Shown: positions 29,660 to 47,508, numbered from the stretch's first letter. The stretch is 58,361 nt of DNA from Pyrinomonadaceae bacterium (GCA_035601635.1 DATNNY010000654.1:1-58361), one strand, 5' to 3'. Made by a program: numbers and translations. Notes: a model not told the origin generated them from the letters alone.

Positions 29660-29746
29660 TGGGGACGACAGGAATTGCACCCGCACGAGCCTTTCGGCTC
29701 ACCGTATCGACAGTACGGCGCGTCTGCTAATTTTCGCCACGTCCCC
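29660..29746 (-). tRNA. type II (long variable arm) tRNA-like gene with apparent GUC anticodon and a non-canonical T-loop
   Basis: Hand-folded. Acceptor GGGGACG/CGTCCCC is perfect. Anticodon stem CCGTA/TACGG has loop CTGTCGA. The variable arm is GAGCC-GAAA-GGCTC. T-stem GCGGG/CCTGT has two G:U pairs. T-loop is TGCAATT rather than TTCRANY. No CCA is encoded. Confidence 0.4.
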
Positions 29747-29774
29747 ATATCCACGGTCGGGCTTGAAAATGTAA

Positions 29775-29848
29775 TGGGGCGAACTCTGGGGATCGAACCC
29801 AGACCTTCGTAGTACTGGTACGACATGCTACCGTTACACCAAGCCCGC
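29775..29848 (-). tRNA. 74-nt tRNA gene with an atypical anticodon loop CCAGUAC (C33; nominal anticodon AGU)
   Basis: Hand-folded. Acceptor GCGGGCT/AGTTCGC has G4:U and G5:U pairs. D-loop is AACGGTA. Anticodon stem is TCGTA/TACGA. T-arm CTGGG-TTCGATC-CCCAG is canonical. Discriminator is C and CCA is encoded. Confidence 0.6.
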
Positions 29849-29988
29849 CACACGGCGGCGGAGAGGTTTTCATTTTTGCGAGTGAGCCTCTTCGCCGTTC
29901 TGGTTTTCAAACACCTTCACTAAATCACAGACAAGACCTTGCTGCAAGCACTATTTCATCGGTGAAACAATTTTTCAGAATGGTTCCC

Positions 29989-30651: not shown

Positions 30652-30807
30652 ACTGAGAGAATTTTAACCTCCGATTTTGCTGAGGTCAAGAGAAATGTTA
30701 AAAAGTGAGAGTGCGTGATGTTGGCGAGAGGGTAGGGCAGCCGTAAAGTCTAGCTTTTGTTAAACGTTTGGCGTTTTAAGGTTAATTGCGTAAAGTACAT
30801 ACTTCCG

Positions 30808-31010
30808 TTTTCAACTTCTCCGTTTGCGCCTAACAGCTCGGCGATTCCCTCAAATAGCGCCTTCAGGATTTCTGCCTCCGGTTTGGAGCACAAAGTTTCG
30901 GTAGCCAGGTGTTTGAGTTGGAGTTCGCCATTGGCCAAGCGTTTTTCAATCGAATAGCGTTGGCCGGAAAGTTTGATTTGCAGCCCTTGTCGCAGCCTTT
31001 GGCCTTTCAT
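30808..31010 (-). pseudogene. tnsB: tnsB, 5' segment upstream of the IS insertion
   Basis: MKGQRLRQGLQIKLSGQRYSIEKRLANGELQLKHL...GANGEVEN. The rest of ORF 30750-31010 (GSMYFTQLTLKRQTFNKS) is read-through into the IS inverted repeat. Confidence 0.8.
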
Positions 31011-31288
31011 ACTTTTCCTCCCTGGTTGCTTTCTGGCTGTGACAGGTAATAACTAACAATCAGCTTGGTGAGGGCGCAGATTTTAAGCGTCAGCCACGGT
31101 CGGCCAACGGGCAGTCTTGTCCTTTCACCTACGACGAACAGATCTAGTTGTGTATCGTCTATCTCGAGGTTCTCCAGCGGGCGGTAGTTATTGTCTCCTT
31201 GGTCTGCGTCACGCTGACTAGTCGCCGAACAGCGCAGGCTTTTTTGCGAAACGGAAACGTGGTCGTCAGTGTTGTCAAAGCGATTCAT
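31007..31288 (-). pseudogene. isolated fragment of a TnsB-like catalytic core between tnsA and tnsB
   Basis: LENLEIDDTQLDLFVVGERTRLPVGRPWLTLKICALTKLIVSYYLS parallels LERVEMDDTKLDLFVIDEKTNLPIGRPWLMIAICAFTKMILGYYLS in the main tnsB. It is only 93 aa. Start and stop overlap both neighbours. Confidence 0.6.
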
Positions 31289-31932
31289 CCTTCACCTCCA
31301 TCGTTGTTTTCAGAGTTAGTTGGAAGCCATATCGGGCTCTTCATACTGAGAGGAATTAAGTAATCGGTAACGATAAAATGGTGGTACATCAGCGCCAGGA
31401 CCACCGGCCTTTCAGCGCCTCGTGATTCAAAAAGCTCGAGAAGTTCCCCTAGCGTTGCTGTTTGGCGATGTAAGAAAAATTCATGGCATAAGAGATGGTG
31501 TTGTGGATGAATTGACGTCCGCGAGTAGTATCTCAATCTCTTGATCGTAGTTAAGAACGGTTCGACTAAAATCTCGCGTTCGGTTTTGACGAGAAAGTCA
31601 TAACCCGCACGATCACATATCGGCGTGACGATCCGAAACAATTGCTCGAACCAGGGTGTAATCAGTCGTTCATACTTAACCTCAACAATCAGCGGACGCT
31701 GTTGTTTCCGATAGACCAGAAAATCGGCCGTAAACGATCGGCGTTTTCCATTCAACTCGTAAAAGACTCTTATTGACTGTGTAGAGTAGGAAATGACGTT
31801 TCGATCGTGCTCGCACCGTAGGGCAAGGCACAGTTCAGCGATCGATTCGGTCCAAATGTTTCGACCGTTCTTCTGGCTCGGAAGCTTGCAGACATTTATA
31901 CGGCGTCCGCCGTTGTGGATTTTTCTGAGCAT
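31285..31932 (-). CDS. tnsA: TnsA-like endonuclease
   Basis: ESIAELCLALRCEHDRNVISYSTQ...FTADFLVYRKQQRPLIVEVKYERL shows a restriction-endonuclease-like D...E-x-K core typical of the TnsA N-terminal domain. Confidence 0.8.
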   Translation of the reverse strand: MLRKIHNGGRRINVCKLPSQKNGRNIWTESIAELCLALRCEHDRNVISYSTQSIRVFYELNGKRRSFTADFLVYRKQQRPLIVEVKYERLITPWFEQLFRIVTPICDRAGYDFLVKTEREILVEPFLTTIKRLRYYSRTSIHPQHHLLCHEFFLHRQTATLGELLELFESRGAERPVVLALMYHHFIVTDYLIPLSMKSPIWLPTNSENNDGGEG

Positions 31933-31947: not shown

Positions 31948-33222
31948 TTATGGTTCTTGAGAATGCGAGCTGGGAGATGTTGCGCATTCGGAAGTGTTAT
32001 CGGCACGGCTATGACAGTGAGCGTTTATTCCTCGGGTGATTTTAAAGAGTGAGGAACGATCTAGCTTCAAACGTCTGGCAGCATGGCTCATATTTCCGTT
32101 ATAGCGACGCTTCACAGCCTCGATAGCTGCAGCTCGCACGCGTTGCGTAAAATCGTGAAAAGACTCACCCGCAAAAAGAGTGCGGCAGGAATCAGGCAGG
32201 TCGATCGTCTGCGAATCGAGATATTTGAACCGGGCCAATTCGGCGTGGACATTTGCAGCGGTGACGTTGGTACCGCCGGCGTAGCAAGCGAGCCGCGCTA
32301 TAACGTTTTGCAATTGCCGAATGTTGCCTGGCCAGTCATAAAGACAAAGTTCATTGAGAGCGGCTTCATCTAGTTGCACGGACTTAACTGAACTCAACTC
32401 AGATCGCTCTGCGGCAAACCTTCTGAAAACGAGTTCCGGAATATCCTGGCGACGTTGGCGCAATGGCGGAATGTCAAGTTGGAGTACTGCGAGGCGGTAA
32501 TAGAGATCGTCTCGAAAGCTGCCGACCGCGATCATTCGATGGAGGTTACGTGACGACGCAGCAACGAGCCGCACGTTGCAGTCAATGTCAGTGAGCCCCC
32601 CCAACCGTCGGATCTTTCGGCAATCAATCGCTTTAAGTAGTTTCGCTTGCAGTTCCGGTTTGAGTTCGCCAATCTCATCCAAAAACAGTGTGCCGTTGTG
32701 CGCAACTTCGAAGAGACCTTTCTTGCGCCCCGTGGCACCTGTAAAAGCTCCTCGCTCGAATCCAAAGAGTTCGCTTTCAAGAAGGTGTTCGGGCAGAGCG
32801 GCGCAATTGACGTCAACGAAACGCGCGGCAGAATGTTTGCTGCGCTCGTGAATGATCTGAGCCACAGTTGTTTTGCCTGTGCCGGATTCTCCCGTTAGCA
32901 GCACGGCGTGCTGTACTCGCGCCGCGTGAGATATTTGTTCGTCGAGACCGCGCATGCTCGGCGATTGACAGACCCATTGGGCGTTCCGCGAAGATTCGGA
33001 AACGGTGCGGCCTTCAGCCACTGCCGAAAAAGCTGCTCTGAGTGTGGTCGGTTTTTTTCCATCGACACGTACATCTCTCCTGAGAAGAGGTTTTTTGAGA
33101 ATGCGCAAGCTAACCATGGAGAATTCCCAAGACAGAATCTCCATTAGACATACTGAAAAAGCGTGAAAGTGTGACAGGGGTGAAGGCGGGGAACCGGGGA
33201 AATGCCCGGGATCTTCTAACAA
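31948..33222 (-). CDS. sigma-54-dependent transcriptional activator (bEBP) without a recognisable N-terminal sensor domain
   Basis: AAA+ Walker A is LTGESGTGKTT. The GAFTGA loop is FERGAFTGATG. WPGNIRQL is present, and the C-terminal Fis-type HTH is NMSHAARRLKLDRSSLFKI. The likely start is M at 33117, leaving only about 60 aa before the AAA+ core. Confidence 0.85.
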   Translation of the reverse strand: MLEDPGHFPGSPPSPLSHFHAFSVCLMEILSWEFSMVSLRILKKPLLRRDVRVDGKKPTTLRAAFSAVAEGRTVSESSRNAQWVCQSPSMRGLDEQISHAARVQHAVLLTGESGTGKTTVAQIIHERSKHSAARFVDVNCAALPEHLLESELFGFERGAFTGATGRKKGLFEVAHNGTLFLDEIGELKPELQAKLLKAIDCRKIRRLGGLTDIDCNVRLVAASSRNLHRMIAVGSFRDDLYYRLAVLQLDIPPLRQRRQDIPELVFRRFAAERSELSSVKSVQLDEAALNELCLYDWPGNIRQLQNVIARLACYAGGTNVTAANVHAELARFKYLDSQTIDLPDSCRTLFAGESFHDFTQRVRAAAIEAVKRRYNGNMSHAARRLKLDRSSLFKITRGINAHCHSRADNTSECATSPSSHSQEP

Positions 33223-33238
33223 ATAGTTAGCTTTAAAA

Positions 33239-33736
33239 TTAATCTAGCAGAGCACTTTCGTTCTGCCTTTCAAGTTCTGATTTGACTTGCGAGAGCCAGG
33301 TCAAGGCTAATTCCAATGCCTCACTTGGATCCGAGATCCTTGCTGAAACCCGCGCAATTTTATGAGAGTTTTCCGTCAAAAGCTTGACGGCTTCGACGTG
33401 AATCCGATAGGCAGCAAAAACTAGCGCGCTTGATCTCGGTGAGGTGGTCCATGGAAGACAATCGTTTGATTCCAAGCTTTGAAGGTCAAGTAATTTTATT
33501 TCCAAAGCATCTGCTAAGGCCATTGGTGCGACACCTAAACTTCTCCTGAATCGGCGAACAAAAGAAGAAAGAGTTGTTATTTCAACAGATCGAGTTACGG
33601 GCCGGTTACGAAGGAAGGAAAGTAAATCACTCGGAGTCTTAAATACGGGAGGCTCCACCTTGGGGATGTTTTCCTCTTCTTCCCTCTCACGACGAATCTG
33701 TTCCAACAGGTTGTTTATGTGATCTTCGTAGCTCAT
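33239..33736 (-). CDS. hypothetical protein between the sigma factor and the bEBP (possible sigma partner)
   Basis: 165-aa ORF with no TM helix and no motif recognised. It overlaps the upstream sigma ORF end by 50 nt. Confidence 0.45.
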   Translation of the reverse strand: MSYEDHINNLLEQIRREREEEENIPKVEPPVFKTPSDLLSFLRNRPVTRSVEITTLSSFVRRFRRSLGVAPMALADALEIKLLDLQSLESNDCLPWTTSPRSSALVFAAYRIHVEAVKLLTENSHKIARVSARISDPSEALELALTWLSQVKSELERQNESALLD

Positions 33737-34307
33737 CGTTTTCCAGCCTCAATATTTCTCGCTTCAGTTTGCGAAGTATGCGTGAGAGTCGCTGTCGGAT
33801 CGCAGTGTCGGTTGATCCTAACCTGCGCGCTATCTCGGGCGACTTTAGGCGTCGACGAAATCGAAGTCGGAGAACCTCGCAATCGATTTCCTTAAGTGAT
33901 CCGCTTTTTCTGAGCGATCTGATCGCCTGTTTCAGCCATTTATGCCTCTTCTGATTTCCGCCATTATTTTCTTCGTCGATTGTAGCTTCGATCGATGGTT
34001 CTAGAATGTCCTCGATGGATTCTGGCCAACGACGTCGTTCTTGCTCACGATTGCGTGCGAAGTTCTTTGCGACTGTTAGAAGCCATTTTGACAATTCTCC
34101 TTCGTCCGGATCGTACCCAGCGCATTTTGTTCTTTCTAAGATTAGCCACAAGTCCTGCCAGACATCTTCCTCTTCATGAAAGCCGGCCCAGCGAAGAAAT
34201 GGAACTACGTTTGCGATTCCTTCTTTCCACAGGAACTCAAACGCTTTAGGATTGCCCGCCTTAAGCTTCTTGATAAACTGTATACTGTCAATGATGGCCT
34301 CGAACAT
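33687..34307 (-). CDS. ECF-like sigma-70 family factor
   Basis: Region 2-like EEDVWQDLWLILE and WLLTVAKNFARNRE. Region 4 HTH is CEVLRLRFRRRLKSPEIARRLGSTDTAIRQRLSRILRKL. Confidence 0.7.
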   Translation of the reverse strand: MFEAIIDSIQFIKKLKAGNPKAFEFLWKEGIANVVPFLRWAGFHEEEDVWQDLWLILERTKCAGYDPDEGELSKWLLTVAKNFARNREQERRRWPESIEDILEPSIEATIDEENNGGNQKRHKWLKQAIRSLRKSGSLKEIDCEVLRLRFRRRLKSPEIARRLGSTDTAIRQRLSRILRKLKREILRLENDELRRSHKQPVGTDSS

Positions 34308-35694: not shown

Positions 35695-36165
35695 ATGGGA
35701 AGAGCGTCGCGTGAAACGCCCAAGCACTTAGGTGAAAACCTTCTCCAAATACGAACTGAGTTGGGTTTGTCTCAGGATGGAATGCTAAGGCGCTCAGGGC
35801 TCGCGCAGGAATACGGCCGGCACTACATCAGCGGTTTCGAGACTGGAGAACGCGAGCCCTCATTTCTGGTATTGTTAAAGTATTCTGAGGTGGCAAGGGT
35901 TTGGATCAACGCCCTCGTGGATGATGAGGTGAATCTTCCTCGCCGAATTTCCAACACTGAAATGCAGCCAGGAATTAAGCAAAAAAGGGCGAAGGACCCG
36001 CAAGCGACGCTGAATCTTAACGGACAAGTACTGGATGGCGCCGCAATGCAATCAACCTCTTACCGCCTCCGGCCCTTTCGCCCTTGTAGGAGATCGCTAA
36101 CTAGGGTGATTGCCACGAAGAGTCCCGCAAAGAGCCCTACAGCTTTTAGAACCTCAGCTGCCTGA
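35695..36165 (+). CDS. XRE-family HTH regulator (paralog of 27667-27909)
   Basis: LGLSQDGMLRRSGLAQEYGRHYISGFETGEREPSFLVLLKYSEVARVWINALVDDEVNL. The 3' end overlaps a convergent ORF. Confidence 0.7.
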   Translation: MGRASRETPKHLGENLLQIRTELGLSQDGMLRRSGLAQEYGRHYISGFETGEREPSFLVLLKYSEVARVWINALVDDEVNLPRRISNTEMQPGIKQKRAKDPQATLNLNGQVLDGAAMQSTSYRLRPFRPCRRSLTRVIATKSPAKSPTAFRTSAA

Positions 36166-36425
36166 GGATAAACTGGCTCGATTTCGACACCTAAATCGTA
36201 AACTTTCTTGCATTGGGGACAGACCACACCTACGCCCTCCATCACTAGCGGAAGCCACGTTGGAGATGTGAGCGGATTGCCATACGGACATGAATGCAGC
36301 ACACCGCCGTCCTTCTTACATGGGCAGAGCAGCTTCTGCGATCCATCGTCATAACATCCAGCGTGTTCCAGATAAGTTTGTTTGTTGCATTGCCGACAGT
36401 CGATTCGTCCATTGTATCCAATCAT
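36060..36425 (-). CDS. Cys-rich (zinc-ribbon-like) protein with a C-terminal TM anchor
   Basis: CRQCNK...CPCKK...CPYG...CPQCKK, then LKAVGLFAGLFVAITLVSDLL. Confidence 0.45.
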   Translation of the reverse strand: MIGYNGRIDCRQCNKQTYLEHAGCYDDGSQKLLCPCKKDGGVLHSCPYGNPLTSPTWLPLVMEGVGVVCPQCKKVYDLGVEIEPVYPQAAEVLKAVGLFAGLFVAITLVSDLLQGRKGRRR

Positions 36426-36553
36426 CTCGGACCTCTCTTCGTCTTATCGCGGCTAGAAGTTGCCTGCTAAGTTTTCGTCATCCTAGTCCCTTTTAACGCT
36501 TCTAAAAAGGATAAAATATGGGCCAAAATATTCCGGCTCCAAGCTCAATGATT

Positions 36554-37240
36554 TCAAGCAGTTTGGGACTTCGGGATGTCGAAGACAGCCTCAAGCAAAG
36601 AGTTGAAAGACTCGTTCGAAGCCAGGTCGGCGCGCTCCTTGTGCTTCAAGAACGTCTCAAACCTCTTCCTGGCATTTTCCTTCATGGTGCGGAGCCAATC
36701 GTTCAGGTGCACTTGACCCTTATCTTCAAGTTCTTTCCAATGAGGCGCACCTATTCTTGAGTTTTGCGCGATCCACAGGGCGATCTCCCAAATGCGCTTG
36801 CTTTCAGCTTTGGTCGGTTTGCGTTCTCTAACAAGCATGTACCTGGTCCCGATGTAGAATGCATAAACGACATTTTCGGCGGTCGGATCTTTTTCGAACA
36901 GGTAACGGTCAGCGATTTGAGCGAGCGTACTCATCTCCGCTCCCTTCTTAAGAAACGGTTCCACAAATTCTCTGATTTCCAACTGTGAAACTGGAACACT
37001 CGGCTCATTTTGCATAAGCGCGCTCACATTGACCCCTTGAGTTTCTAGAAGTGCCTTGAGTCCATGACTCAGAAATTCAGGACCCCGAAGAACCAACTTT
37101 AAGCCGCGGTCAATCGCCGTCGGATCCGAGCAGGCGTGAAGCAGTCCGAAGAAGAGAATTGTGGAATCAACGGAGATCGACTCCCTATGTCGATTCTTTG
37201 TATTATTCAGATCTGTCGACATCGAGGTTCTATTCGGCAC
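36554..37240 (-). CDS. hypothetical protein (operon with caspase-helicase)
   Basis: 228-aa ORF, co-directional, 43-bp gap to the upstream gene. No motif recognised. Confidence 0.55.
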   Translation of the reverse strand: MPNRTSMSTDLNNTKNRHRESISVDSTILFFGLLHACSDPTAIDRGLKLVLRGPEFLSHGLKALLETQGVNVSALMQNEPSVPVSQLEIREFVEPFLKKGAEMSTLAQIADRYLFEKDPTAENVVYAFYIGTRYMLVRERKPTKAESKRIWEIALWIAQNSRIGAPHWKELEDKGQVHLNDWLRTMKENARKRFETFLKHKERADLASNESFNSLLEAVFDIPKSQTA

Positions 37241-37283
37241 CGCAAACCGAAGTTTTTGCGAGTGCCTGGAGCGAATTCCCTTT

Positions 37284-37907
37284 CTACATTTTCGATCTTG
37301 CCGGAAAGCCGAGATTTGAAGCCAAGTCTCTGTCTTTCTCCAGTTTGTTCTTTCGCATCTCTATACGCGTGCGGGCTTTGCTGCGAACGCCACCATTGAA
37401 CATTTCGACATCGCTCCCAACGCAACTAAGCCACTGTCTAATCTGACCTAGCTCACGATCGAATTGGCTGCGAATGGCGGTAGCTTCTTGCTGACCCGCT
37501 GCGGTGTATATCAGCACCAGCTCACTTGCATTCACTTGGGCGTGGGGCGGATTAAAGTTGAAAGATGACGGACGACACTTGAACAGCTCCTTCTCTCCCA
37601 AATAGGGCACAAAGAATTTGTAGCGCGTACCGGAGACAAGGCCAGAGCCGCCGTGATAGAAGAATCGATTGGGCGTCCGTCTCACGTCGATTTTCGCGTC
37701 TTCGTGATCGACGGTGATGCTCTTTTCGTCTAACGCCGGGACGGCAATCGTGTATTCTCTTTCGAAATAGTCGCAGAGAGTCTCAAGGTCTTCATCGCGG
37801 ATGCGAGCTGGCGGAAAACTCTCAATTTCTTTGAACATCTTCTGCTCATGCCCATATAAAACGCTCGAAAGATCCACGTTCGAAAAAAGAATCGTTCTTT
37901 CACCCAT
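37284..37907 (-). CDS. hypothetical protein (operon with caspase-helicase)
   Basis: 207-aa ORF with a 35-bp gap to the upstream gene. No motif recognised. Confidence 0.55.
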   Translation of the reverse strand: MGERTILFSNVDLSSVLYGHEQKMFKEIESFPPARIRDEDLETLCDYFEREYTIAVPALDEKSITVDHEDAKIDVRRTPNRFFYHGGSGLVSGTRYKFFVPYLGEKELFKCRPSSFNFNPPHAQVNASELVLIYTAAGQQEATAIRSQFDRELGQIRQWLSCVGSDVEMFNGGVRSKARTRIEMRKNKLEKDRDLASNLGFPARSKM

Positions 37908-37942
37908 ATTCTTAGTGGCCTCCTCGTCAGAGCTTGTCTAAG

Positions 37943-39100
37943 CTAGGTCATTTTTAGCGCCATTAGCAGTCGCTCATTTTCGTCAATCAGAACCTCATGA
38001 GGCTCTCCTTTACCCGCCTTCATTTGTAGATCCTCGGCACTAGCATGTTCCAAACCGTCTTCACTCGTAAGGTCGCGAATCTGATGACCTTCGCCGAGTA
38101 ATCTAAAGTCAGGGTTGTCGACGTCGCGCTTGAATAGGTACGTGAAATCAAGGACGTGCGGAGTTATGTGAGCCGGTCTGGCAATGTCCGGTGCAAAGTA
38201 CTCCGACGGTAACGTGTAATCAGTATGATAATAACCTTTATATTCACAATAGTTCTTGTCACGAACCTTTTTTGAGAGCTTCACTGGACACTCCGGCATG
38301 CCGATCGGACTGGGCCATAGGTCAGTAGCCTTTCCTGAGACCGCGTTGGCAGCCATATCAATCGTTCGCATCGCTAACTCCAATGCTTTGCCTAACGAAT
38401 CAATTTTAGACTCAGGATAGCCTTCAAACGGTCCGCCAATTTGGCTGTCCATCTCTTTCATAGCGTTTGCGACGATGCCAGATTTTACTAAGTGACCAAC
38501 AGAATTGACGGAGAAGGCCATGCCGCCTGGTATACGGTGGTCGTGCCACCAGCGACCATCCCCTTGCGCGCAAAAATAATTTACTCCGGTAAGCCACTTC
38601 CACGTCGTCAGTGACGAGCCGGGCTTCTGAAGGTAGAGTTGGTCGAGATGAATCTTGTCGGTGAAGATGTCGGCTTGTAAATACAGAAAGCATAGCCTGC
38701 GAGCCAGTTCTAACATCGCGGGGCTCGGCACCGCGGATGCGAGTAGTGGAGATATCGCCAGCACAACAAATCCACTTTTACGACCTTCGAAACCGTGTCG
38801 TGTCCATTCCAACCTTTTTGACTGAATCTTGTTACTAATGAATTCATCGGATTCTCGAAGGTCATTCTCCGTGAGAAAACAATAGGTCAGAGCATCCGAC
38901 TTAGCTGCAATTCGGCCAAACAAACAAGGCTGCCATTTTTCCAGCCACCGTCCGAGAACTGCTGCCGCCTCTGCATCACTTCGCGTCTGAAAGAGACAGG
39001 TGTTGGCAGACTCGATCTCTGGAGAGAAACCAACATTGTCGCGCCAATCGTCGGGCTCCAATAACGAAAAATAGTGGGCAACAGAATTAGGTGTAACCAT
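37943..39100 (-). CDS. hypothetical protein (operon with caspase-helicase)
   Basis: 385-aa ORF with a 21-bp gap to the upstream gene. It contains WQPCLFGRIAAK, and I cannot place the family. Confidence 0.6.
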   Translation of the reverse strand: MVTPNSVAHYFSLLEPDDWRDNVGFSPEIESANTCLFQTRSDAEAAAVLGRWLEKWQPCLFGRIAAKSDALTYCFLTENDLRESDEFISNKIQSKRLEWTRHGFEGRKSGFVVLAISPLLASAVPSPAMLELARRLCFLYLQADIFTDKIHLDQLYLQKPGSSLTTWKWLTGVNYFCAQGDGRWWHDHRIPGGMAFSVNSVGHLVKSGIVANAMKEMDSQIGGPFEGYPESKIDSLGKALELAMRTIDMAANAVSGKATDLWPSPIGMPECPVKLSKKVRDKNYCEYKGYYHTDYTLPSEYFAPDIARPAHITPHVLDFTYLFKRDVDNPDFRLLGEGHQIRDLTSEDGLEHASAEDLQMKAGKGEPHEVLIDENERLLMALKMT

Positions 39101-39121
39101 ATTCCACAGACTCGCTACGAT

Positions 39122-42100
39122 CTAACTCACGTATAACGGTATGTTTTGTACCGACGAGGCTTCACCGTCGTGTTCTTTGTTGTGCGCCTCCACAGCCCTT
39201 CTTAAGACTAATAACTTCGATTCACTGCCAGATAGCACTTCGAGTAGTGCTTCATCAGAAGTTTCCATTAGCTCATCGATGGAACATTTGCCTGCCTGTA
39301 ACAGTCGGCGGTAGTCGCCGCGCGTAAGTCGTGTGCCTGCTAATGTTGCCAGTTCCACGGCGGTTGGTGGAACGCCAGTTTCGAGCCTGATTAGTAATCG
39401 ATCTACGCGACCATTTAAATCGAGGCTGGGATGCACGGCCGCGGCAACCCTGCTAACGGTATGCAACAGGTCGCACGTTCTCGACCTAGATCCCAACACA
39501 GGTCCTGAAGCTCCATCGAATCTACCGCCGTGCCTCGTAAGAATGTTTTCGATTTCCGACATCGGAAGATCTGAAATCCAAAGTAGACAAGCGGCGGCCT
39601 TCTTTGCTCGACGAGCCAATTGAGCTGTGTCTGAGACTCTCAAGCTAAGCGTCTGAATAAGACTTTCGGTTACACCTTGCCTACGGATTTCCGATGTCCA
39701 AGAGTTACTTTCTTTTGCAGCGCCCTTCTTATTAACTGGGAAATAAACTTCATCTAATTCGACCGTTATTTGCGCGGCCGTTATGAGCGCCGGATCGGTA
39801 ACCTGCTCGGGCCGCACACGTCGGAACGCATCCACTAAGCGAATAATCGACTCAACCTCAACGCCGGCTTCACCGGCGAATCGCCCTAAATCAGTAGGCA
39901 AATAACGCCCATCATGACCCACTTCGACGAGTCCGTGAGTCTTGAGCGATAACAAGGCCTCCAGCAGACGGGTCTTGTCCCACGACCAGTTCGGTTGCAT
40001 TTGCCTTTGCTGAAACGCGCCGAAACTCTCTTCCAAGAAACTGATTACCTGGTCCGAGGTAAGGCCGCCGGCTTTCTTAGGTGTGGCCGCGAGCACTCGT
40101 AGAATCAGTGAGCGCTGATCTGTTTGACCCGACAAGAATCGGGAAACGACATCCTCCGGCTGGCCTTTGATGTATCTCGTCCAAAGATACTCCTCCGCTC
40201 GCGCAGTTAAAGCTAAAAGAAAAGATGCTCCTCTTTGCGTGAAGGGTAATCTGCCGGCGCGACCAGCGATGTTCTTGTATTCGGCTATCGAGTAGGGCTG
40301 GGGAACATCTCCAGGGTGTTCAAGTCCCGCAATAATTACGGCTTCGGCCGGAGTATTGATACCCATTGCCAAAGTTGTCGTTGCGGCTATGACTCTGATG
40401 GATGACTGCGGCAATCTAAACTCATCTTCGATTACCTGCTTTTCTTCTGGGTCCAGGTCCGCGATATGGAAGGCAACACCTCCCTCAAGGCTTTGCTTGA
40501 GATTGCCGGACGCCAGTGAAGGATCTCCTATGGGCAGGAGGTCGATTGCTGACTTCGCAGGCGGTAACCGCAAGGCTTCGGCTAAATAGTGCGCACACCC
40601 CCTCGCTTCGCCTTTCGTCTCACGGAAAACGATTACGCTCTTATTCTCAGAAACCAATTTTCGGGTAAGAGGAATGATGTAGTTCTGGCTCGCGTTGGGG
40701 TTGGCGCTTCGATACTCAGGAACAATAACTCCCTCTAGAATTTTCTCCTCACCGGTATCCGATGATACAAAGCGGAAGCTGCCATCGCGCCTAATTACGC
40801 CTTCGTCAAGAGGCACAGGTCGTTCAGTACGCTTCAAGAGCCTCGCGCCGACCCATCTTTCCAATCCGTTCGTGTCCCCAATTACAGCTGACAAGGCAAT
40901 AAACTGAGGTTCGGCGCCTTGACGTCGGCTGATGCGGAGCAAAGTCAGCAGGAACTCAAGATTTGCGCCGCGTGATAGGTCGGCGATCATCTGAACTTCA
41001 TCGACTACGACAGTACCTACCTGTCCCATGAGATATGGACTTCCAAGTGCCAGCGCAGCGAATTTTTCGTAAGTCATCAAGCAGATGTCGTATTGACCGC
41101 GCATCAGTGGGCCAATATCATCAACTGTGCTGTTGCCGGTGGCCATGATTGTTCTTGCGCCGAAGTTGCCGTAGAGCTTTTCAAAATGTCGTAATTTGTC
41201 ATTCACCAATGCCTTTAGTGGCAGCAGGAAGAAGGCGCGCTGGCGATTCAGTATGCCGCGCAACGCCGCTAGCTCACCGATCATGGTCTTGCCGGAAGAG
41301 GTGGGAGCCGAAACAACTAAGTTTTCCCCTGAAAGTAATCCGTATTCGTTAACCGCGCTGATCTGTAATTCGTTAAGTGAAGGGATAACTCCGGCCCAAG
41401 CATCAATCAATTGCTGCGGGAAACCGTATGAGTTTAGACTTTGGACGTCTTTCGTAACCGGTTGGCGTTGCGAGTCAGGGAACAGGGCTGAGTACCGAGG
41501 GCCAGGGGTGAATATTGGCCAAGTAATGTCGCCGTCAATCTTACCCCTCACCGTCGGGTTCTGAATCTTACCCAGCTTAGCTGAGAAATCGGTGACTCCC
41601 TTTGTAACGTGTTCGAGGAGACGGTAGAGAGAGATTTTTCCCGCTTGAACAACTTCGTCAGCACCTTGCAAAGCCATAATCAGATGGTGGGTCAGTAGGC
41701 CATGTTTGAGCTTCGCATTTTCCCAAGCTTTTTCTGTCGCAGTTGATGCAGTCAGCACCAGCCTACCGGCACCAGACATCTGCTCTAGCAAATTCTCAAC
41801 GGAGGAAAGTTCACGCGCGGTGGTATCAACGTCCAATCCTTTTGCACCCATGCCGCCCGAGAAACAGCAATCCAAGATGCAAATGAGCCGCTTCGCCGGA
41901 ACTTGTGACAGTGAGCGCGCAAGTAGATCGAGAGAGATACAGCTGCCTTCTAGATCACGAAGGTCTGCGTCGTATGTAACAATTTGGTGAGTGGGGGAGC
42001 CGTGGCCTGAAAACGAGATGACAACTACATCGGCGGCGGAGCACGATTTCAGCTTCTCCAGATTGTCGATAATAGTCGCACGAGTAGCTTCTTCATCGAC

Positions 42101-42238
42101 AATGAGTTTTGTTGCACCACCGAGAGTGTCAGTAAACAGTGCGTGCAGAGCGGCAGCATCTCGAGCAGCGAAACTCAGTTCATTTATTAAAGTCGATGAA
42201 TGCCGATTGATTCCAATGAACAGACCATAAAATGCCAT
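39122..42238 (-). CDS. caspase-like (peptidase C14) domain fused to a Ski2/DExH-like superfamily-2 helicase
   Basis: The N-terminus has FIGINRH..., a His in VVVISFSGHGS and a Cys in LICILDCCFSGG. Helicase motifs are APTSSGKT (I), VVVDEVQ (II), LSAV (III), IAATTTLAMGINTPA (V) and IAGRAGR (VI). About 350 aa of extra C-terminal region follow. Confidence 0.85.
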   Translation of the reverse strand: MAFYGLFIGINRHSSTLINELSFAARDAAALHALFTDTLGGATKLIVDEEATRATIIDNLEKLKSCSAADVVVISFSGHGSPTHQIVTYDADLRDLEGSCISLDLLARSLSQVPAKRLICILDCCFSGGMGAKGLDVDTTARELSSVENLLEQMSGAGRLVLTASTATEKAWENAKLKHGLLTHHLIMALQGADEVVQAGKISLYRLLEHVTKGVTDFSAKLGKIQNPTVRGKIDGDITWPIFTPGPRYSALFPDSQRQPVTKDVQSLNSYGFPQQLIDAWAGVIPSLNELQISAVNEYGLLSGENLVVSAPTSSGKTMIGELAALRGILNRQRAFFLLPLKALVNDKLRHFEKLYGNFGARTIMATGNSTVDDIGPLMRGQYDICLMTYEKFAALALGSPYLMGQVGTVVVDEVQMIADLSRGANLEFLLTLLRISRRQGAEPQFIALSAVIGDTNGLERWVGARLLKRTERPVPLDEGVIRRDGSFRFVSSDTGEEKILEGVIVPEYRSANPNASQNYIIPLTRKLVSENKSVIVFRETKGEARGCAHYLAEALRLPPAKSAIDLLPIGDPSLASGNLKQSLEGGVAFHIADLDPEEKQVIEDEFRLPQSSIRVIAATTTLAMGINTPAEAVIIAGLEHPGDVPQPYSIAEYKNIAGRAGRLPFTQRGASFLLALTARAEEYLWTRYIKGQPEDVVSRFLSGQTDQRSLILRVLAATPKKAGGLTSDQVISFLEESFGAFQQRQMQPNWSWDKTRLLEALLSLKTHGLVEVGHDGRYLPTDLGRFAGEAGVEVESIIRLVDAFRRVRPEQVTDPALITAAQITVELDEVYFPVNKKGAAKESNSWTSEIRRQGVTESLIQTLSLRVSDTAQLARRAKKAAACLLWISDLPMSEIENILTRHGGRFDGASGPVLGSRSRTCDLLHTVSRVAAAVHPSLDLNGRVDRLLIRLETGVPPTAVELATLAGTRLTRGDYRRLLQAGKCSIDELMETSDEALLEVLSGSESKLLVLRRAVEAHNKEHDGEASSVQNIPLYVS

Positions 42239-42265
42239 TTCGTTCGTTGACCAGAAGTAGCACCC

Positions 42266-42502
42266 TCAGTGTTTCTTATCTTTGGGAGGATTCGGGTCGT
42301 TGCCATAACTGTCCTTGTCTTTGATTCTGTTTTCGCGATTATGAATAACCAATTCAGACCCACGTGTTTTAGCGAGCGGCGTTGCGGTCTTAATGGCTGC
42401 CTGCTGTGTGTCATGGAGACTAGATGCTCTTTTATCTCCTTCACTTATCACTGCCCAACTCTTATCCTTGCGATGTGTGACATGAACGTTCTTCTTTGCC
42501 AT
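42266..42502 (-). CDS. DUF2188-like small protein
   Basis: VHVTHRKDKSWAVISEGDKRASSLHDTQQAAIKTATPLAKTRGSELVIHNRENRI matches my memory of DUF2188. Confidence 0.6.
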   Translation of the reverse strand: MAKKNVHVTHRKDKSWAVISEGDKRASSLHDTQQAAIKTATPLAKTRGSELVIHNRENRIKDKDSYGNDPNPPKDKKH

Positions 42503-42633: not shown

Positions 42634-43017
42634 ATGGCGACTAGAAAACTTAGCAGCTTGGGAGCACTAGTTAGGAAGAAGCGCGGCGAGCGAAAATTGC
42701 GCGAGACTGCTGGGCAAATTGGCATTGGTCCAGCAACGTTGATGCGAGTAGAGAACGGGCGCATTCCGGACATAGAGACTTTCGGCAAGCTGTGCAACTG
42801 GCTGAAGATTGATCCTGGTAGTTTCTTGGGATTTCAGCCAGATGTAAGTCAAGCCGCTCAGTTATCACCGAATGAGCCAGCGGTGTCCTTGTCCGCCCAC
42901 TTCAGGGCAGATCGAACACCAGAGCCGGCGACCGTGAATGCCCTTGCGAAAATGATTCTCTTAGCTGTTCACTCGCAGCGGGGGAGCGAAGTCTTAGAAG
43001 AAGATGACCACGCTTGA
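42634..43017 (+). CDS. XRE-family HTH regulator
   Basis: LRETAGQIGIGPATLMRVENGRIPDIETFGKLCNWL. It overlaps the downstream ImmA-like ORF. Confidence 0.75.
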   Translation: MATRKLSSLGALVRKKRGERKLRETAGQIGIGPATLMRVENGRIPDIETFGKLCNWLKIDPGSFLGFQPDVSQAAQLSPNEPAVSLSAHFRADRTPEPATVNALAKMILLAVHSQRGSEVLEEDDHA

Positions 43018-43582
43018 GCGAGGCTTCAAATCCTGGGCCGAACGCACCTCCCTTGCATTTCGAAAGGAATTGGGCGTTCCCATTGACGCTCCGCTTAAAC
43101 CTCAACAGGTAGCAGAGTATCTCGGCGTTGAATTATGGACGCCAAGCCAGGTCCCCGCGATAACGAGGGAAATAACGGATCAATTACTGAAGATCGATCC
43201 TTGGGGATGGTCTGCAGCGGGCATGCAACTTAACGATCGAGGAATTGTTGTTTACAACCCTCGCCATTCACGGGGTCGCCAAGTTTCTGACATTACCCAT
43301 GAACTTGCGCATTTCATATTGGATCACCAACCCGCAAAGATTATTCTGTCGGCCGACTTGGATGGTATGAGCATGCGATCTTTTAATCAGAAACAAGAGG
43401 ATGAAGCGAACTGCCTCGCTTGGACCCTTCTTCTTCCGCGAGAAGGATTAATGCGAGCGAAGCGGCGCCGTCTGACGGCGGACCAAATCGCTGAACAATA
43501 TGGCGTAACGAAATCGCTCGCAGTATATCGGTTGAATTCCACCGGGGTGGAAAAACAATTAAGAGCTCGACTCGCGCATTAG
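43004..43582 (+). CDS. ImmA/IrrE-family metallopeptidase
   Basis: HELAHFILDH (HExxH) with EDEANCLAWTLLLP downstream. This is the classic pairing with an upstream XRE gene. Confidence 0.75.
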   Translation: MTTLERGFKSWAERTSLAFRKELGVPIDAPLKPQQVAEYLGVELWTPSQVPAITREITDQLLKIDPWGWSAAGMQLNDRGIVVYNPRHSRGRQVSDITHELAHFILDHQPAKIILSADLDGMSMRSFNQKQEDEANCLAWTLLLPREGLMRAKRRRLTADQIAEQYGVTKSLAVYRLNSTGVEKQLRARLAH

Positions 43583-43627: not shown

Positions 43628-46600
43628 GTGACAATGGATCTAACGACCTTTTTTGGCCGGCTCGGTTATCTGGAGTCGCCGCACTTCTTGCGACGTGGCA
43701 GTGCTGAACTGCGCGCGGCACCGGACTTTGGCCACATATTTCGAAAGGCGACAGCTAAACCGTGCCATCTAGAAGGTGTTTATACGCTACGGCGTACTCC
43801 CCAATCCAAGACTGAGCCTCTTGTCCCCGTCGTCTATGTCTGTACTGCGGAGTCCGAACAGGCTGCAGCCAAAATCCATGAACTGGTGTGGAACCAGGAT
43901 ATCGTTCCTTTCCTACTGGTGCATTCGCCGCGCGGAGTTTCCCTATATTCGGGTTTTAAGTGCCAACCGCTAAAGAACGGCTTAGAGCGAGGAGTCTTGA
44001 AGCCATTGATGCAATTCAATGAAGTGTCGGAACTCGCTGAGTCATTTCATGCCGACGCTATCGACAGCGGTAAGTTGTGGAGAGATTGGGGCCGACACGT
44101 CACACCGGAAACGCGGATCAACTGGAAGTTACTCGGTAACTTGCTGAAGCTCGATCGCTGGCTTCGAGACAATGGCGGCTTGGAGAAGGATGTTTCTCAT
44201 GCATTGATAGGTAAGTACGTTTACCTGCATTACCTGCGCGATCGAGACATTCTCTCAGATGCGCGACTGGCCGAGTGGCAGCTCGATGAATCGGCGATCT
44301 TTGGGGGTACTGCCACCCGCGCTGGATTGCAGGCCGTCACCGAAAGGCTGGATGAGTGGCTTAATGGTAGCGTGTTTCCGCTAAAGCTGCGCGGCCGCGG
44401 TGCGCCAGATGATGAGCTGATCTCACGCGTCGCAGCTACCTTTCATGGTGACGAGATAGTGGGTGAACGTGACTGGCAGTTGCATCTTGACTTCCGCGTC
44501 TACGACTTTTCCTACATTCCAATCGAGACCCTGTCGGTAATTTACGAACAGTTCTTACATATGCCCGAGGAGGACGGCGGAGCTACGAAGGGCGAAGAGG
44601 CCGCCGCTTACTATACGCCGATACCAGTCGTCAATTTCATGTTGTCGGAGATGGAGGAACGATTACCGCTTCAACGTGGAATGAAGGTTTTCGATCCGGC
44701 TTGCGGCTCTGGGGCTTTCCTTGTTCAAAGCTATCGTAGACTTATCGAGCGTGAGTTTCCGGTTACGAAACAGAGGCCTACGCCGCACGAACTTCGCGCT
44801 TTATTAGAAGATCATATCTTTGGAATCGACAACGACCCTGATGCATGCCAGGTGACAGAGTTGAGTCTCATTCTCACGCTACTCGATTACGTTCATCCGC
44901 CGGACCTATTGCCAACGTCGCCTGGGAAGCCTAACTCCGATTTCAAGCTCCCTGCCCTGGTTGGAACTAATATTTTTCAGACAAATTTTTTCAAGCTAAG
45001 TAATGCCGCGCGTCAGAACTTGGCCGAAATTAAGTTTCATTGGATCGTTGGAAATCCTCCCTGGAAAGATCTTAATCCCGCCAAACTGATCAAGCAAGAC
45101 GAGCCGGCTTGGGAATGGATGCGCGATAAGGAGAATGTGAAGCAGCGGCCGTGCGGTGACAACGAACTGGCTCAGGCGTTCGCGTGGCGATCAAGTGAGT
45201 TTCTGTTTGACGCTGGAGCGACTGCCCTACTACTGCCAGCGATGACGCTATTCGAAGATCCGTCGCGCAAATTTAGAAAGAGGTTCTTCAAAGCTCAACG
45301 AGTCACCGCAGTGGCTAACTTCTCGAACCTTGCGGAAGTCCTCTTTGCTAGCGGCAGATCCACCGTCAAGCGTCCTCGGATACCTGCAGCATCTTTCTTC
45401 TTTTGCAATCGCGACCAAGTTGAAGTTGATCCCGATGACTGTATTCGCGTGTTCTCACCAATGGTAGCGAATCAAGAACCAACTCGACCGAGCGTTCAGG
45501 GAGAACGGGTGCCTACTTGGAGTTTGGTCATTAGCGCTAATGAAATCCGCGATGTTTCAGTGGGAGAAGTCGCTAGGGGAGATGCTCTTCCTTGGAAACT
45601 TGCCATGTGGGGCTCGGCGTCCGACATAAAATTGTTAACCCGCACTGCGAGCCGCATGACGAGTATTGGAGAACTCGAAGCTGAAGGAGCGATTGTGGTA
45701 GCTGAAGGCCCCCCGCTAGTATCTTCACATGTCAAGAGCGGTAAAAACCGAACGAAATATGTTCCCGAAGTGGTCGGTCAACCGCTGCTAACGATGAACG
45801 CTGCCGCAAGACTCCGATATCTCTTTGACTTTCCGAACAATGCTTTTCTTGAGAACAAGAAATACTACGGTCACCTGCGTCGCGGGATCCGCGGTCTAGC
45901 TATTTGTAATGCCCCCCATGTTGTCGTAAGTGCCGCGCGCACGTTTGCGATCTTCAGCGACAAGTACTTTATTGTTCCGACCCGACAGATCGGCATAATA
46001 AGCACGACAGGCGATGATGCTTTTCTCAAAGCGCTCTCGCTTTATCTAAGTTCTGACTTTGCGTTCTATCACCAGTTTCTTACATCTCCTCAATTTGGCG
46101 TGAAACGTGATGTGGCAACCCTCAATGCTCTCCGACGCATTCCAGTACCGATTGCAAATCGAAGCCGTGAATATCTTGAACCGTGGTTACAACTGCATAA
46201 CCGGCTGGTCAAAACTACTCCCGTCGATGTACGCGACACCCGTATCGAGCAGCGCGGAGAAGGCCAAAAACAACTTCAATTCGGTATCCCTGATCGTGAC
46301 AACCTCGTTCCTCTGTTGAACGAGTTGAACAATCTCGTGTATGACACCCTTGGATTTGACGATCATGACCGCGCATTAGTCCATGACCTTGTACGCGTTC
46401 GATTACATCTGATTGACGGGAATATCGGAAGGCCAGCTATTCGTCCGCCGAAGCAGGCCGAGATGAAAACCTATGCCCGTCGATTAAAGGCTGATCTTGA
46501 TGCTTTCGTTGGCGACGAACTGGACAAGCGGCATCAGGTCGGTATTGTCTATGACAACGAGTCCGGTATGATCCAAATCGATCTAATTGCCGACAAAATG

Positions 46601-46849
46601 GCAGCTCGTAGTCTCACTGTTGTCGCGGCAGATCAATTGACCGCGCGACAGTTGGAAAAGACGCGGCGACGCCTCAGAAAACAGCAGAGCCAGTGGCTCT
46701 ACTTCGATCGTAATCTACGTGTCTACGAAGAATCGAAGACGTTCGTGTTGAAGCCTATGCAACGGTTCCATTGGACTGAAAGCCAAGCGATGTTAGATGC
46801 TCAAGAAATCATTGCAGGAACCCTACAACTCGGAGACCAAATCCAGTGA
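43628..46849 (+). CDS. large N6-adenine DNA methyltransferase (Eco57I/type IIG-like architecture)
   Basis: AAYYTPIPVVNFML, the SAM motif VFDPACGSGAFLV and the catalytic IVGNPPW. About 300 aa at the N-terminus and about 550 aa at the C-terminus are unknown. ATG at 43634 is a likely start. Confidence 0.8.
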   Translation: MTMDLTTFFGRLGYLESPHFLRRGSAELRAAPDFGHIFRKATAKPCHLEGVYTLRRTPQSKTEPLVPVVYVCTAESEQAAAKIHELVWNQDIVPFLLVHSPRGVSLYSGFKCQPLKNGLERGVLKPLMQFNEVSELAESFHADAIDSGKLWRDWGRHVTPETRINWKLLGNLLKLDRWLRDNGGLEKDVSHALIGKYVYLHYLRDRDILSDARLAEWQLDESAIFGGTATRAGLQAVTERLDEWLNGSVFPLKLRGRGAPDDELISRVAATFHGDEIVGERDWQLHLDFRVYDFSYIPIETLSVIYEQFLHMPEEDGGATKGEEAAAYYTPIPVVNFMLSEMEERLPLQRGMKVFDPACGSGAFLVQSYRRLIEREFPVTKQRPTPHELRALLEDHIFGIDNDPDACQVTELSLILTLLDYVHPPDLLPTSPGKPNSDFKLPALVGTNIFQTNFFKLSNAARQNLAEIKFHWIVGNPPWKDLNPAKLIKQDEPAWEWMRDKENVKQRPCGDNELAQAFAWRSSEFLFDAGATALLLPAMTLFEDPSRKFRKRFFKAQRVTAVANFSNLAEVLFASGRSTVKRPRIPAASFFFCNRDQVEVDPDDCIRVFSPMVANQEPTRPSVQGERVPTWSLVISANEIRDVSVGEVARGDALPWKLAMWGSASDIKLLTRTASRMTSIGELEAEGAIVVAEGPPLVSSHVKSGKNRTKYVPEVVGQPLLTMNAAARLRYLFDFPNNAFLENKKYYGHLRRGIRGLAICNAPHVVVSAARTFAIFSDKYFIVPTRQIGIISTTGDDAFLKALSLYLSSDFAFYHQFLTSPQFGVKRDVATLNALRRIPVPIANRSREYLEPWLQLHNRLVKTTPVDVRDTRIEQRGEGQKQLQFGIPDRDNLVPLLNELNNLVYDTLGFDDHDRALVHDLVRVRLHLIDGNIGRPAIRPPKQAEMKTYARRLKADLDAFVGDELDKRHQVGIVYDNESGMIQIDLIADKMAARSLTVVAADQLTARQLEKTRRRLRKQQSQWLYFDRNLRVYEESKTFVLKPMQRFHWTESQAMLDAQEIIAGTLQLGDQIQ

Positions 46850-47508
46850 TAAATGCATCGCGTCCTCGGCCCGGCGGCTTTTCAAGCAATTCTGTTTACC
46901 TACGAAGGGTGTTTGTTCGACGGGTCCATCAACTGGTGCTACTCGGCTATGACCGATTGACACCTTCTGCTTACGAAAAAGCGGAAGAGCCTTCGATCTC
47001 AGGCGATTTGGTTGAAGCAATTGACCATGTTTTGAGCGAGCGCGACGAACCATGGATGTCTATGTTCAGCGTACACGACGATCCCCCTATCAACGACGGT
47101 CGACGAAAAGGAAAACGCCGAAAACGCGTTGACCTGCGGATTGATTCGGGAGCGCTTCGCCCTCGTGCCCGTTTCCGATTTGAAAGTAAGCGGCTCGGTA
47201 GACGCCACACGGTAAAAATTTACCTTGGGACTGATGGTCTCGGATGTTTTCTGCGCGGTGATTACGCGCGAGAAGAGGACCAAGCCGGTATGCTCGGCTA
47301 CGTACAGCGTGGCAACCTAGGAGATTGGGGTAAGAAGATCGCGCAAGAATTCGCCAAGGCTCCGGCTCTTTATGCGGTGGACTCAGAAGCTCCGTTCTCC
47401 GTCGAATCAACACGTTCAACTGTCTCGCAGGCGTATCATTCGCGACACAATCGCAGCGCCGTGGGTCGACCAATTCTCATTGACCACATCTTGCTAATAT
47501 TCTACTGA
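46846..47508 (+). CDS. putative PD-(D/E)xK nuclease-fold protein
   Basis: It overlaps the methyltransferase stop. RVDLRID...FRFESKRL fits a D...E-x-K pattern. The motif-level call is weak. Confidence 0.45.
   Translation: MINASRPRPGGFSSNSVYLRRVFVRRVHQLVLLGYDRLTPSAYEKAEEPSISGDLVEAIDHVLSERDEPWMSMFSVHDDPPINDGRRKGKRRKRVDLRIDSGALRPRARFRFESKRLGRRHTVKIYLGTDGLGCFLRGDYAREEDQAGMLGYVQRGNLGDWGKKIAQEFAKAPALYAVDSEAPFSVESTRSTVSQAYHSRHNRSAVGRPILIDHILLIFY

Follow-up and report, generated by a model that had tools for sequence, protein, structure and literature searches.

A caspase–Hel308 helicase fusion with recurrent partner genes as the core of a candidate modular defence system in bacteria

In a 58,361-nucleotide stretch of DNA from a Pyrinomonadaceae bacterium (GCA_035601635.1, DATNNY010000654.1:1-58361; the window hereafter means this whole stretch), six consecutive minus-strand genes, here designated A to F, include a gene, B, whose product joins a peptidase-C14 (caspase-type) domain to a helicase. 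By sequence comparison, B consists of a caspase domain and a Hel308-like helicase with all five domains; it is widespread among bacteria and recurrently adjoins two of its neighbours in this block, C and D. The functional unit that emerges is a modular core around B and not the six-gene block. This fusion probably represents a further form of sensor-activated-protease anti-phage immunity: the logic is familiar, but neither the fusion nor its partner families have been characterised. In recent work, sensors that switch on a protease, which in turn acts on an effector, have come to the fore as a dominant logic of bacterial defence, with clear parallels to eukaryotic caspase signalling, and B would couple the sensing of DNA structure to caspase activation within a single polypeptide in at least 529 species genomes. 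That B, as a helicase-gated caspase core with C and D as its partners in this clade, acts in defence is a tentative reading, which we hold at slightly less than even confidence.

The fusion of a peptidase-C14 fold with an SF2 Ski2/DExH-like helicase, as well as an intact His/Cys dyad and a complete set of helicase motifs, had been read from the translation in an earlier annotation of this DNA (the original prediction), and all of this was borne out by Pfam, NCBIfam and the alignment with the Hjm helicase of P. furiosus (PDB 2zj2). Residues 6-231 match Peptidase_C14 (PF00656) with 58.8 bits (E = 8e-16; the cut-off is 21.4), DEAD was located at residues 292-454 (E = 2.5e-23) and Helicase_C at residues 587-664. 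Both SFSGHGS and LDCCFSGG are present, and H79, C124/C125, G316-K317-T318, D413-E414-x-Q416 and R660/R663 are invariant in an alignment of 26 sequences with identities down to 56%, which indicates that both the caspase and the ATPase activities are under selection. The C-terminal region of about 350 residues, which had been listed after the helicase, is not an extra part of the protein but corresponds to the ordinary domains 3-5 of Hel308, named here after the established Hel308 structures: Hel308-type NCBIfam models (PRK02362) span residues 273-1024 (E = 2.5e-79), and Hjm aligns with residues 298-1001 over chain residues 33-684 of 720 (E = 6.5e-48). Since these matches cover the C-terminal third of B, they identify B as a caspase joined to a full Hel308-like helicase. 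The HamB protein of Hachiman matches the first RecA domain only (E = 8.5e-19), and HamB models cover part of B with at most 107 bits. The best NCBIfam Hel308 score, 267 bits, is far under the equivalog cut-off of 887 and does not support orthology, which sets B apart as a distinct Hel308-like clade. The caspase domain is nearest to the model 'caspase, EACC1-associated type' (NF047832; 88 bits, below the cut-off of 140), PADLOC returned for B generic matches to HamB, SngC, BrxH and caspases only, and the PHROGs label is 'Holliday junction branch migration helicase'.

A protein search yielded 1805 relatives of B, and the top matches are all of about 1030 aa with the same architecture. The species genomes with a relative, counted by scanning one genome per species, typically encode a protein of 50-60% identity and belong to Proteobacteria, Cyanobacteria, Bacteroidota, Actinomycetota, Acidobacteriota, Planctomycetota, Chloroflexota, candidate phyla radiation lineages and other phyla. 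The family is also present on 19 plasmids, and the phage records contained no B-type fusion, the matches there being helicase-only and covering at most 52% of B. In 15 alphaproteobacterial genomes of the genera Bradyrhizobium, Sphingomonas, Bosea, Xanthobacter, Afipia and Rhodopseudomonas, the surroundings of B are 95-100% identical (L026-L036, L039, L053, L064 and L086; L-numbers denote the retrieved homologue loci), which points to the recent horizontal spread of a B-carrying mobile element. Mobile and defence genes abound near B, among them a Type III restriction-modification (R-M) gene that overlaps the start of B by 4 nt in L004, Type ISP R-M, Fic and integrase genes in L008, and an SLFN/AlbA_2 gene in L010, and Tn7-like cargo surrounds B in L092, L094, L175 and the window. 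The copy in L175 (L175:2538-7630) is decayed, with B in four frameshifted pieces, C split and D intact, and lies near genes for a protein kinase, an Mrr-type nuclease and a TnsA-like protein.

These data also bear on a non-immune explanation, in which B would be a Hel308-type helicase for replication restart or repair of the element, or a damage-triggered death factor, and C a small-molecule enzyme. The E-values given above place the helicase nearer to Hel308/Hjm than to HamB, and the branch-migration label from PHROGs agrees with such a function, as do the enzyme-like invariant residues of C and the coupling of its E. coli plasmid homologue to a DMT exporter. However, there is no known repair rationale for a strictly conserved caspase dyad on a repair helicase, and the patchiness of B, its horizontal mobility, its position beside R-M and other defence genes and the existence of a decayed copy are typical of defence genes and not of core repair. 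We regard this explanation as very improbable.

The conservation of the neighbourhood was examined in the 80 best genome loci for B and in 80 metagenomic loci for C. The complete series A to F, together with the XRE/ImmA pair and the Tn7-like genes described below, is kept only in the two closest relatives found, L092, with a B of 95% identity, and L094, in which B is 86% identical and E and F are down to about 50%. Beyond these, the block is reduced in different ways: L006 (B 83%) retains A, B, a frameshifted C and D, and unrelated genes replace E and F; L176 (B 72%) retains the order B-C-D, followed by an unrelated 231-aa gene; and L008 (B 74%) and L010 (B 62%) have only B-C left. A, E and F are absent from L008 and L176, and among the 80 genome loci and the 80 C-centred loci E and F were found in none and A in L096 only (B 84%). 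The idea that all six genes form one obligate multi-component defence system, as the original prediction had implied by treating the block as a unit, fits the shared strand, the short gaps (A-B 27, B-C 21, C-D 35 and D-E 43 nt, with 128 nt between E and F), the terminator-like site that follows F only, and the maintenance of the whole block with XRE/ImmA in L092 and L094 despite the divergence of E and F. The replacement or absence of A, E and F elsewhere speaks against it, and we consider it quite unlikely; what stood of the proposed unit are the B-C and B-D pairs, which recur in independent orders. Thus, the linkage of B with C and of B with D is real, and that of A, E and F is not supported; these three genes would be either clade-specific accessories or mere co-resident cargo.

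Among the 80 best genome loci, C adjoins B in about nine non-redundant cases and a D-like gene does so in two. C was found downstream of B at 60-88% C identity (L092, L094, L006, L008, L010, L095-L099 and L176), at 46-50% identity upstream of B or of a B-like fusion of 36% identity (L148, L149 and L141), and, as a C-like gene of about 30% identity, directly upstream of B in Sorangium, Isosphaeraceae and others (L001, L016-L018, L025 and L070). For at least 12 of 24 B clusters (of at least 62% identity), the source contig is equal in size to that of a C cluster. The order B-C-D is retained down to 60% and 48% D identity, and a D-like gene adjoins B upstream in two alphaproteobacterial genomes without C (L049, hhalign probability 99.0; L055, a tblastn match of 22% identity). 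That C and D keep recurring at B, across deep divergence and in changed gene order, suggests that they are functionally coupled to it and are not chance neighbours.

At other loci B stands by itself or in different company. No same-strand neighbour is present within 250 bp of B in Nostoc (L021, L022 and L024), nor in L019, L044, L045, L060, L067 and L068, and elsewhere the adjoining genes encode a Type III restriction enzyme, an alpha/beta-hydrolase, an Mrr-type nuclease (Mrr_cat), ThiF-family proteins or a Tle1-like phospholipase-fold protein. In L058 and L063 the ThiF-family neighbour is a 517-aa gene, and in L176 (L176:1-2200) a ThiF/BilD_N protein gene and a 307-aa gene lie directly upstream of B-C-D and resemble a Bil-type ubiquitin-like defence system. 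The neighbourhood test that accompanied the original prediction therefore gave a divided outcome, with recurrent linkage for C and D, and with B often solitary or differently accompanied and E and F never recovered in these loci. Under a second explanation, B alone would be a sensor-effector with broad proteolysis, and C and D, instead of being substrates, would act as inhibitors or antitoxins, serve as decoys, or simply be defence genes of their own that lie nearby. The solitary copies and the heterogeneous neighbours agree with this, as does the conservation of B, which at about 57% identity across phyla far exceeds that of any partner; a comparable activity has been described for the caspase-like protease of type IV Thoeris, which is reported to degrade many cellular proteins (Rousset et al. 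2025, cited in PMC12799240). On the other side, C and D each recur beside B in several independent orders with short gaps, and C also tracks other caspase and CHAT genes, which is hard to explain by chance. We judge a B that works alone to be rather unlikely.

In the reading that we prefer, the Hel308-type helicase of B would be a sensor that controls the N-terminal caspase-type protease, its output, within one polypeptide. The helicase module would load on aberrant DNA of invading phages or plasmids, for example on 3' tails or forks, the structures on which Hel308, and the related HamB in Hachiman, act. ATP-dependent engagement or oligomerisation would then gather the caspase domains and lead to their activation, and the protease would cut targets, resulting in cell arrest or death. 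In the clade of the window, C would be a dedicated protease-linked effector or substrate and D an accessory.

The C family comprises 567 clusters at 50% identity in an exhaustive profile search of representatives; all 150 listed representatives are of at most 489 aa, and the matches listed (E = 1e-51 or better) include no annotated relative. C, E and F had no above-threshold match in Pfam, NCBIfam, PADLOC or PHROGs, and two C profiles (A2 and A4) gave no match against PDB sequences at E up to 10. The AlphaFold2 model of C (pLDDT 81, pTM 0.83, with residues 323-353 below pLDDT 50) was compared with known structures using Foldseek, and the top five PDB matches were all AglA (E = 0.035-0.09, probability 0.7-0.9, TM 0.40-0.46 on the target), followed by faint matches to the oxygenase domain of nitric-oxide synthase (NOS); among the viral structures of BFVD there was no meaningful match. 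AglA is the prototype of the YqcI/YcgG haem-thiolate arginine N-hydroxylases, with Cys44 as its haem ligand (PMC12866846). Weak matches to PF08892 (YqcI_YcgG) were found in 5 of 42 divergent C members (E = 0.015 at best; about 12 bits, with a cut-off of 27), and two localised ones cover the region of C that holds the invariant QPCxFG cysteine, which we infer to be equivalent to AglA Cys44. Besides this Cys, C has invariant basic and aromatic residues, and further invariant residues, e.g., GDGRWWHDHRIPGG, look catalytic. It differs from this family in being about 140 residues longer, with a C-terminal linker and tail, in scoring below the curated thresholds, and in lying beside proteases and not in biosynthetic clusters. 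Its fold may be that of a remote YqcI/YcgG relative. A metallo-beta-lactamase (MBL) or alpha/beta-hydrolase identity for C was discarded, given that no profile matched and the predicted fold differs.

Near its C-terminus, C carries the motif DNPDFxxxGxGxxIR, which ends at R342, a residue that is 100% conserved in a 56-sequence alignment; residues 343-360 form an indel-rich linker (12-32% conserved), followed by a small conserved tail. A prokaryotic caspase-like protease is reported to cut its partner effector after Arg in the LcCaspase/hydrolase pair (Evans et al., PMC12642450), and this Arg-specific cutting in one comparable pair makes R342 a reasonable candidate cleavage site. We propose with low confidence that a protease may cleave C at R342, ahead of the disordered linker. 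An extended version, in which C would be a haem-thiolate, YqcI/YcgG-like (NOS-reminiscent) oxygenase effector that is inhibited by its tail, freed at GxGxxIR by the adjoining protease and makes a toxin, strikes us as a long shot. The freeing protease would be the caspase-Hel308 fusion, a TIR-controlled caspase, a CHAT protease or a putative papain-like enzyme of 516 aa, depending on the locus, and C, once freed, would produce reactive nitrogen species or an N-oxygenated metabolite that is toxic. If true, C would represent a 'caspase-activated oxygenase' arm of bacterial immunity and B would be the first helicase-gated caspase. We hold the specific cleavage site and the haem chemistry with much less confidence than the overall picture of a helicase-gated caspase core.

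Away from the window clade, C associates with proteases of several kinds. In 8 of the 80 C-centred metagenomic loci, C adjoins B or a B-like fusion, and in about 8 it adjoins a stand-alone Peptidase_C14 protein of about 320 aa, in most cases together with one or two ThsB-type TIR genes and in some with a SLOG-like gene. For most of the loci without an assigned neighbour, the contig is too short for an assignment. Operons with C, the stand-alone caspase and ThsB-TIR genes were seen in L101, L105, L106, L143, L147 and L165, and L141 has these genes near C. The stand-alone caspase of L105 and the caspase domain of B match the same NCBIfam model (97 and 88 bits, respectively). CHAT-domain proteins are encoded within 4.5 kb of C in 4 of the 80 loci (L116, L126, L129 and L149, the last of which is also among the B-adjacent loci). 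C lies inside TIR-caspase arrays in L101:5189-9177, L143:735-3351 and L105:747-3750, the order in L101 being C, TIR, caspase, TIR, caspase, and some of these arrays include a SLOG-like gene of 157-200 aa; they resemble operons of the type IV Thoeris kind to which an undescribed component has been added. C is best described as a gene that travels with caspase/CHAT-superfamily cysteine proteases across several otherwise different systems. In this it behaves like protease-activated effectors (PMC12642450, PMC12799240), and the fact that it follows caspase and CHAT genes across unrelated systems makes C a candidate new class of protease-linked effector, whose chemistry would be enzyme-like and possibly haem-dependent.

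Several observations weigh against a caspase-Hel308 core that acts in defence through C and D. At most of the 80 best genome loci B is accompanied by neither C nor D, and C genes mostly occur without B, which suggests that C is optional for B and that B is one of several partners of C. The commonest neighbour of C, in 35 of the 80 C-centred loci, is P516, a convergent unannotated protein of about 516 aa encoded about 15 bp away. The DNPDFxxxGxGxxIR motif is kept with every partner type, P516 included, and may therefore be structural or catalytic and not a caspase site; moreover, C-like proteins of the L001 clade do not have it. The resemblance between C and YqcI/YcgG proteins is weak (Foldseek E of about 0.04, TM 0.3-0.46; 12 against 27 bits in Pfam). 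On enterobacterial plasmids, the gene for a C homologue overlaps the start of a DMT-family transporter gene and no protease is encoded nearby, pointing to a small-molecule enzymatic role for which proteolysis is not required. Promoter and terminator scans of the region revealed no enrichment over shuffled sequence, and the terminator-like site after F is weak evidence because such sites are no more numerous in the region than expected from the shuffles. Finally, no description of a caspase-Hel308 fusion was found in the literature searched.

P516 contains the invariant motifs QQQD, C200, H298 (HAVxVxG) and D333 D334, in the order found in papain-like peptidases. No match to it was detected in Pfam, NCBIfam or PADLOC, nor against PDB sequences with profile A5 at E up to 10; that P516 is a papain-like protease is only a hypothesis, suggested solely by this Q...C...H...D pattern. 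D and P516 are two further orphan families tied to the same network. The plasmid homologue of C is a 355-aa protein found on 138 enterobacterial plasmids (hhalign probability 99.9), in which QPCVFG is kept; the copy on the E. coli plasmid NZ_CP053235.1 (L178:5950-7876) lies near the capU/virK/lpxM locus. This relative offers a tractable entry point to the family.

The original prediction had recognised no named system in this gene set, and this held: apart from the generic matches of B, PADLOC identified only PDC-S16 (A) and PDC-S54 (D), which are unvalidated single-gene candidates. The nearest parallel in logic is protease-bearing Hachiman, in which trypsin-HamA/HamB activates a pro-nuclease upon DNA sensing (PMC12799240). 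The HamM-HamA(trypsin)-HamB arrangement shares with the present block a Ski2/Hel308-like helicase, a protease output, a separate putative target protein, the defence-island setting and an abortive-infection logic. In contrast, the protease here is a caspase (C14) fused to the helicase and not a trypsin-like enzyme, Pfam and PADLOC detected no HamA/DUF1837 and no MBL-fold pro-nuclease among the operon proteins, and the helicase resembles Hel308/Hjm more closely than HamB. Canu (CanABC), a caspase-nuclease system (PMC12799240), and the caspase-effector modules of Evans et al. (PMC12642450) likewise encode a caspase-family protease beside a putative effector; however, C to F have no Lactamase_B/MBL or Pepco match in Pfam, NCBIfam or PADLOC, the putative sensor is a helicase instead of a STAND, TPR or Ig-like protein, and C is larger and of a different fold. 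Nothing was recognised as EACC1 among the neighbours in the library scans, which did not include an EACC1 profile search. Type IV Thoeris also relies on a caspase-like protease, and C-family genes sit in TIR-caspase operons elsewhere; here, Pfam and PADLOC found no TIR domain in the six operon proteins or in ten flanking open reading frames (ORFs), and activation would come from the fused helicase and not from a TIR-made nucleotide signal. Compared with archaeal Hel308/Hjm (PDB 2zj2, 2p6r), B has the same five-domain architecture and all helicase motifs, but it is bacterial, located on mobile elements and preceded by a caspase domain, and its score is well short of the NCBIfam equivalog cut-off. 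Hachiman, Canu, type IV Thoeris and the Shango/BREX helicases were each rejected as the identity of the block, as their defining partners are absent and the PADLOC matches are to part of the helicase only. A 2012 census counts 12 prokaryotic metacaspases with helicase domains, and the conflict-system papers of the Aravind group mention helicases only in other contexts.

As to the remaining proteins, the first gene of the block had been called DUF2188-like, in agreement with the Pfam result for A (Table 1), which also matches PDC-S16 over its full length. A was found upstream of B in four loci (L092, L094, L096 and L006), all with a B identity of at least 83%. The proteins downstream of B had been described as unplaceable; this remains so for C, E and F with respect to the libraries, but D matches PADLOC PDC-S54, its only match (E = 2.5e-47, profile positions 1-204 of 410), a candidate for which literature searches returned no relevant paper. 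The model of D (pLDDT 84.5) consists of an alpha/beta domain and a 55-residue C-terminal helix and had no meaningful fold match in the PDB with Foldseek; D may be an adaptor or regulator. The idea that E is the missing C-terminal half of PDC-S54 was not borne out, and the gene at the same position in L176 is unrelated to E. Homologues of E were found only in L092 (88%) and L094 (50%), and those of F only in the same two loci. F had been predicted to be a Cys-rich membrane-anchored protein, and its sequence agrees with this: two conserved CxxC pairs are among its 8 Cys, and residues 92-110, near the C-terminus, form a hydrophobic transmembrane helix, after which comes a basic tail; its match to a zinc ribbon is sub-threshold (E = 0.0084).

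Translation of the window returned the six ORFs with the positions, sizes and gaps of the original prediction, and its account of the setting as transposon cargo within a defence island is a fair description. On one side, the block is flanked by a divergent XRE/ImmA pair and a Type IIG R-M enzyme (Table 1), and on the other by Tn7-like genes (TnsA-like, TnsB, TniB and TniQ), all of it in an island (about 9 to 50.5 kb) whose GC content is below that of its flanks. CapH/CapP consists of an HTH (helix-turn-helix) repressor and an ImmA/IrrE metallopeptidase, divergent from the defence operon that it regulates. The XRE HTH and Peptidase_M78 genes, divergent from A-B, have the arrangement of these regulators, and by analogy they probably control transcription of the block in response to damage. 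An M78 gene lies upstream of B and divergent from it in L092, L094, L006 and L008; in all of these except L008 it is next to an annotated HTH gene.

Table 1. Coordinates of the six-gene block, its flanking features and the residues and motifs discussed in the text (positions in the window, except where a locus is given)
Feature	Position	Strand	Description
Gene A	42266..42502	-	78 aa; DUF2188 protein, first in block; Pfam E = 1.2e-19, PADLOC PDC-S16 E = 7e-30
Gene B	39122..42238	-	1038 aa; caspase-Hel308 fusion, widespread core gene; Pfam Peptidase_C14, DEAD, Helicase_C
Peptidase C14 (caspase-like) domain	B residues 1-245, 41504..42238	-	H79, C124/C125
Two RecA-like helicase domains	B residues ~285-680, 40199..41386	-	Walker A 316-318, DEVQ 413-416, motif VI R660/R663
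Hel308 domains 3-5	B residues ~681-1038, 39125..40198	-	Winged helix, ratchet, helix-hairpin-helix region
Gene C	37943..39100	-	385 aa; recurrent partner of caspase-type proteases; possibly remote YqcI/YcgG-like fold
C59 codon, QPCxFG motif of C	38924..38926	-	Invariant in alignments A2 and A4; candidate haem-thiolate ligand
DNPDFxxxGxGxxIR motif	C residues 328-342, 38075..38119	-	Candidate protease recognition or cleavage site
Gene D	37284..37907	-	207 aa; second recurrent partner of B; alpha/beta domain and 55-residue C-terminal helix
Gene E	36554..37240	-	228 aa; no library match; system membership unsupported outside nearest relatives
Gene F	36060..36425	-	121 aa; Cys-rich (zinc-ribbon-like), tail-anchored; kept in nearest relatives only
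Terminator-like hairpin and T-run	35989..36001	-	Directly past F; possible operon end
XRE-family HTH	42634..43017	+	Divergent from A-B; Pfam
ImmA/IrrE M78 metallopeptidase	43004..43582	+	Divergent from A-B; Pfam
Type IIG restriction-modification enzyme	43628-46849		Beyond XRE/ImmA
P516 example	L172:1927-3495	-	Others e.g. in L113, L115, L118, L123, L136, L155

Other genes of the window were recorded around the block. A 156-aa HTH ORF on the plus strand (35695-36165) is convergent with F and covers 106 nt of its 3' end; its HTH domain is confined to residues 12-66, so the long tail may reflect a mis-extended ORF. Between the block and the TnsA-like gene, three minus-strand ORFs (31948-34307) encode a 424-aa sigma-54 activator, a protein of 165 aa and an ECF-like sigma-70 protein of 206 aa; the sigma-70 ORF shares 50 nt with the 165-aa one, and L092 retains a sigma-70 gene too. 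An interruption of the Tn7-like genes was seen in 25390-31932, where the TnsA-like gene (31285-31932) is parted from TnsB (25390-27297) by a 220-aa ORF, tRNA-Thr and tRNA-Asp genes (29659-29848) and an IS1595-family transposase (28450-29436); this arrangement could stem from elements that are nested or lie side by side, or from a tRNA attachment site. In a 423-aa protein beside TniQ (20277-21548, minus strand), the C-terminal part matches the Pfam domain 'predicted pPIWI-associating nuclease' just under the cut-off of 25 bits (23.6 bits, E = 6e-5), and PADLOC PDC-M58A is matched weakly. Defence-type cargo continues past the Type IIG enzyme, with two unannotated ORFs (46846-47508 and 47570-48481) and a dCTP-deaminase-like gene on the minus strand (49456-50022).

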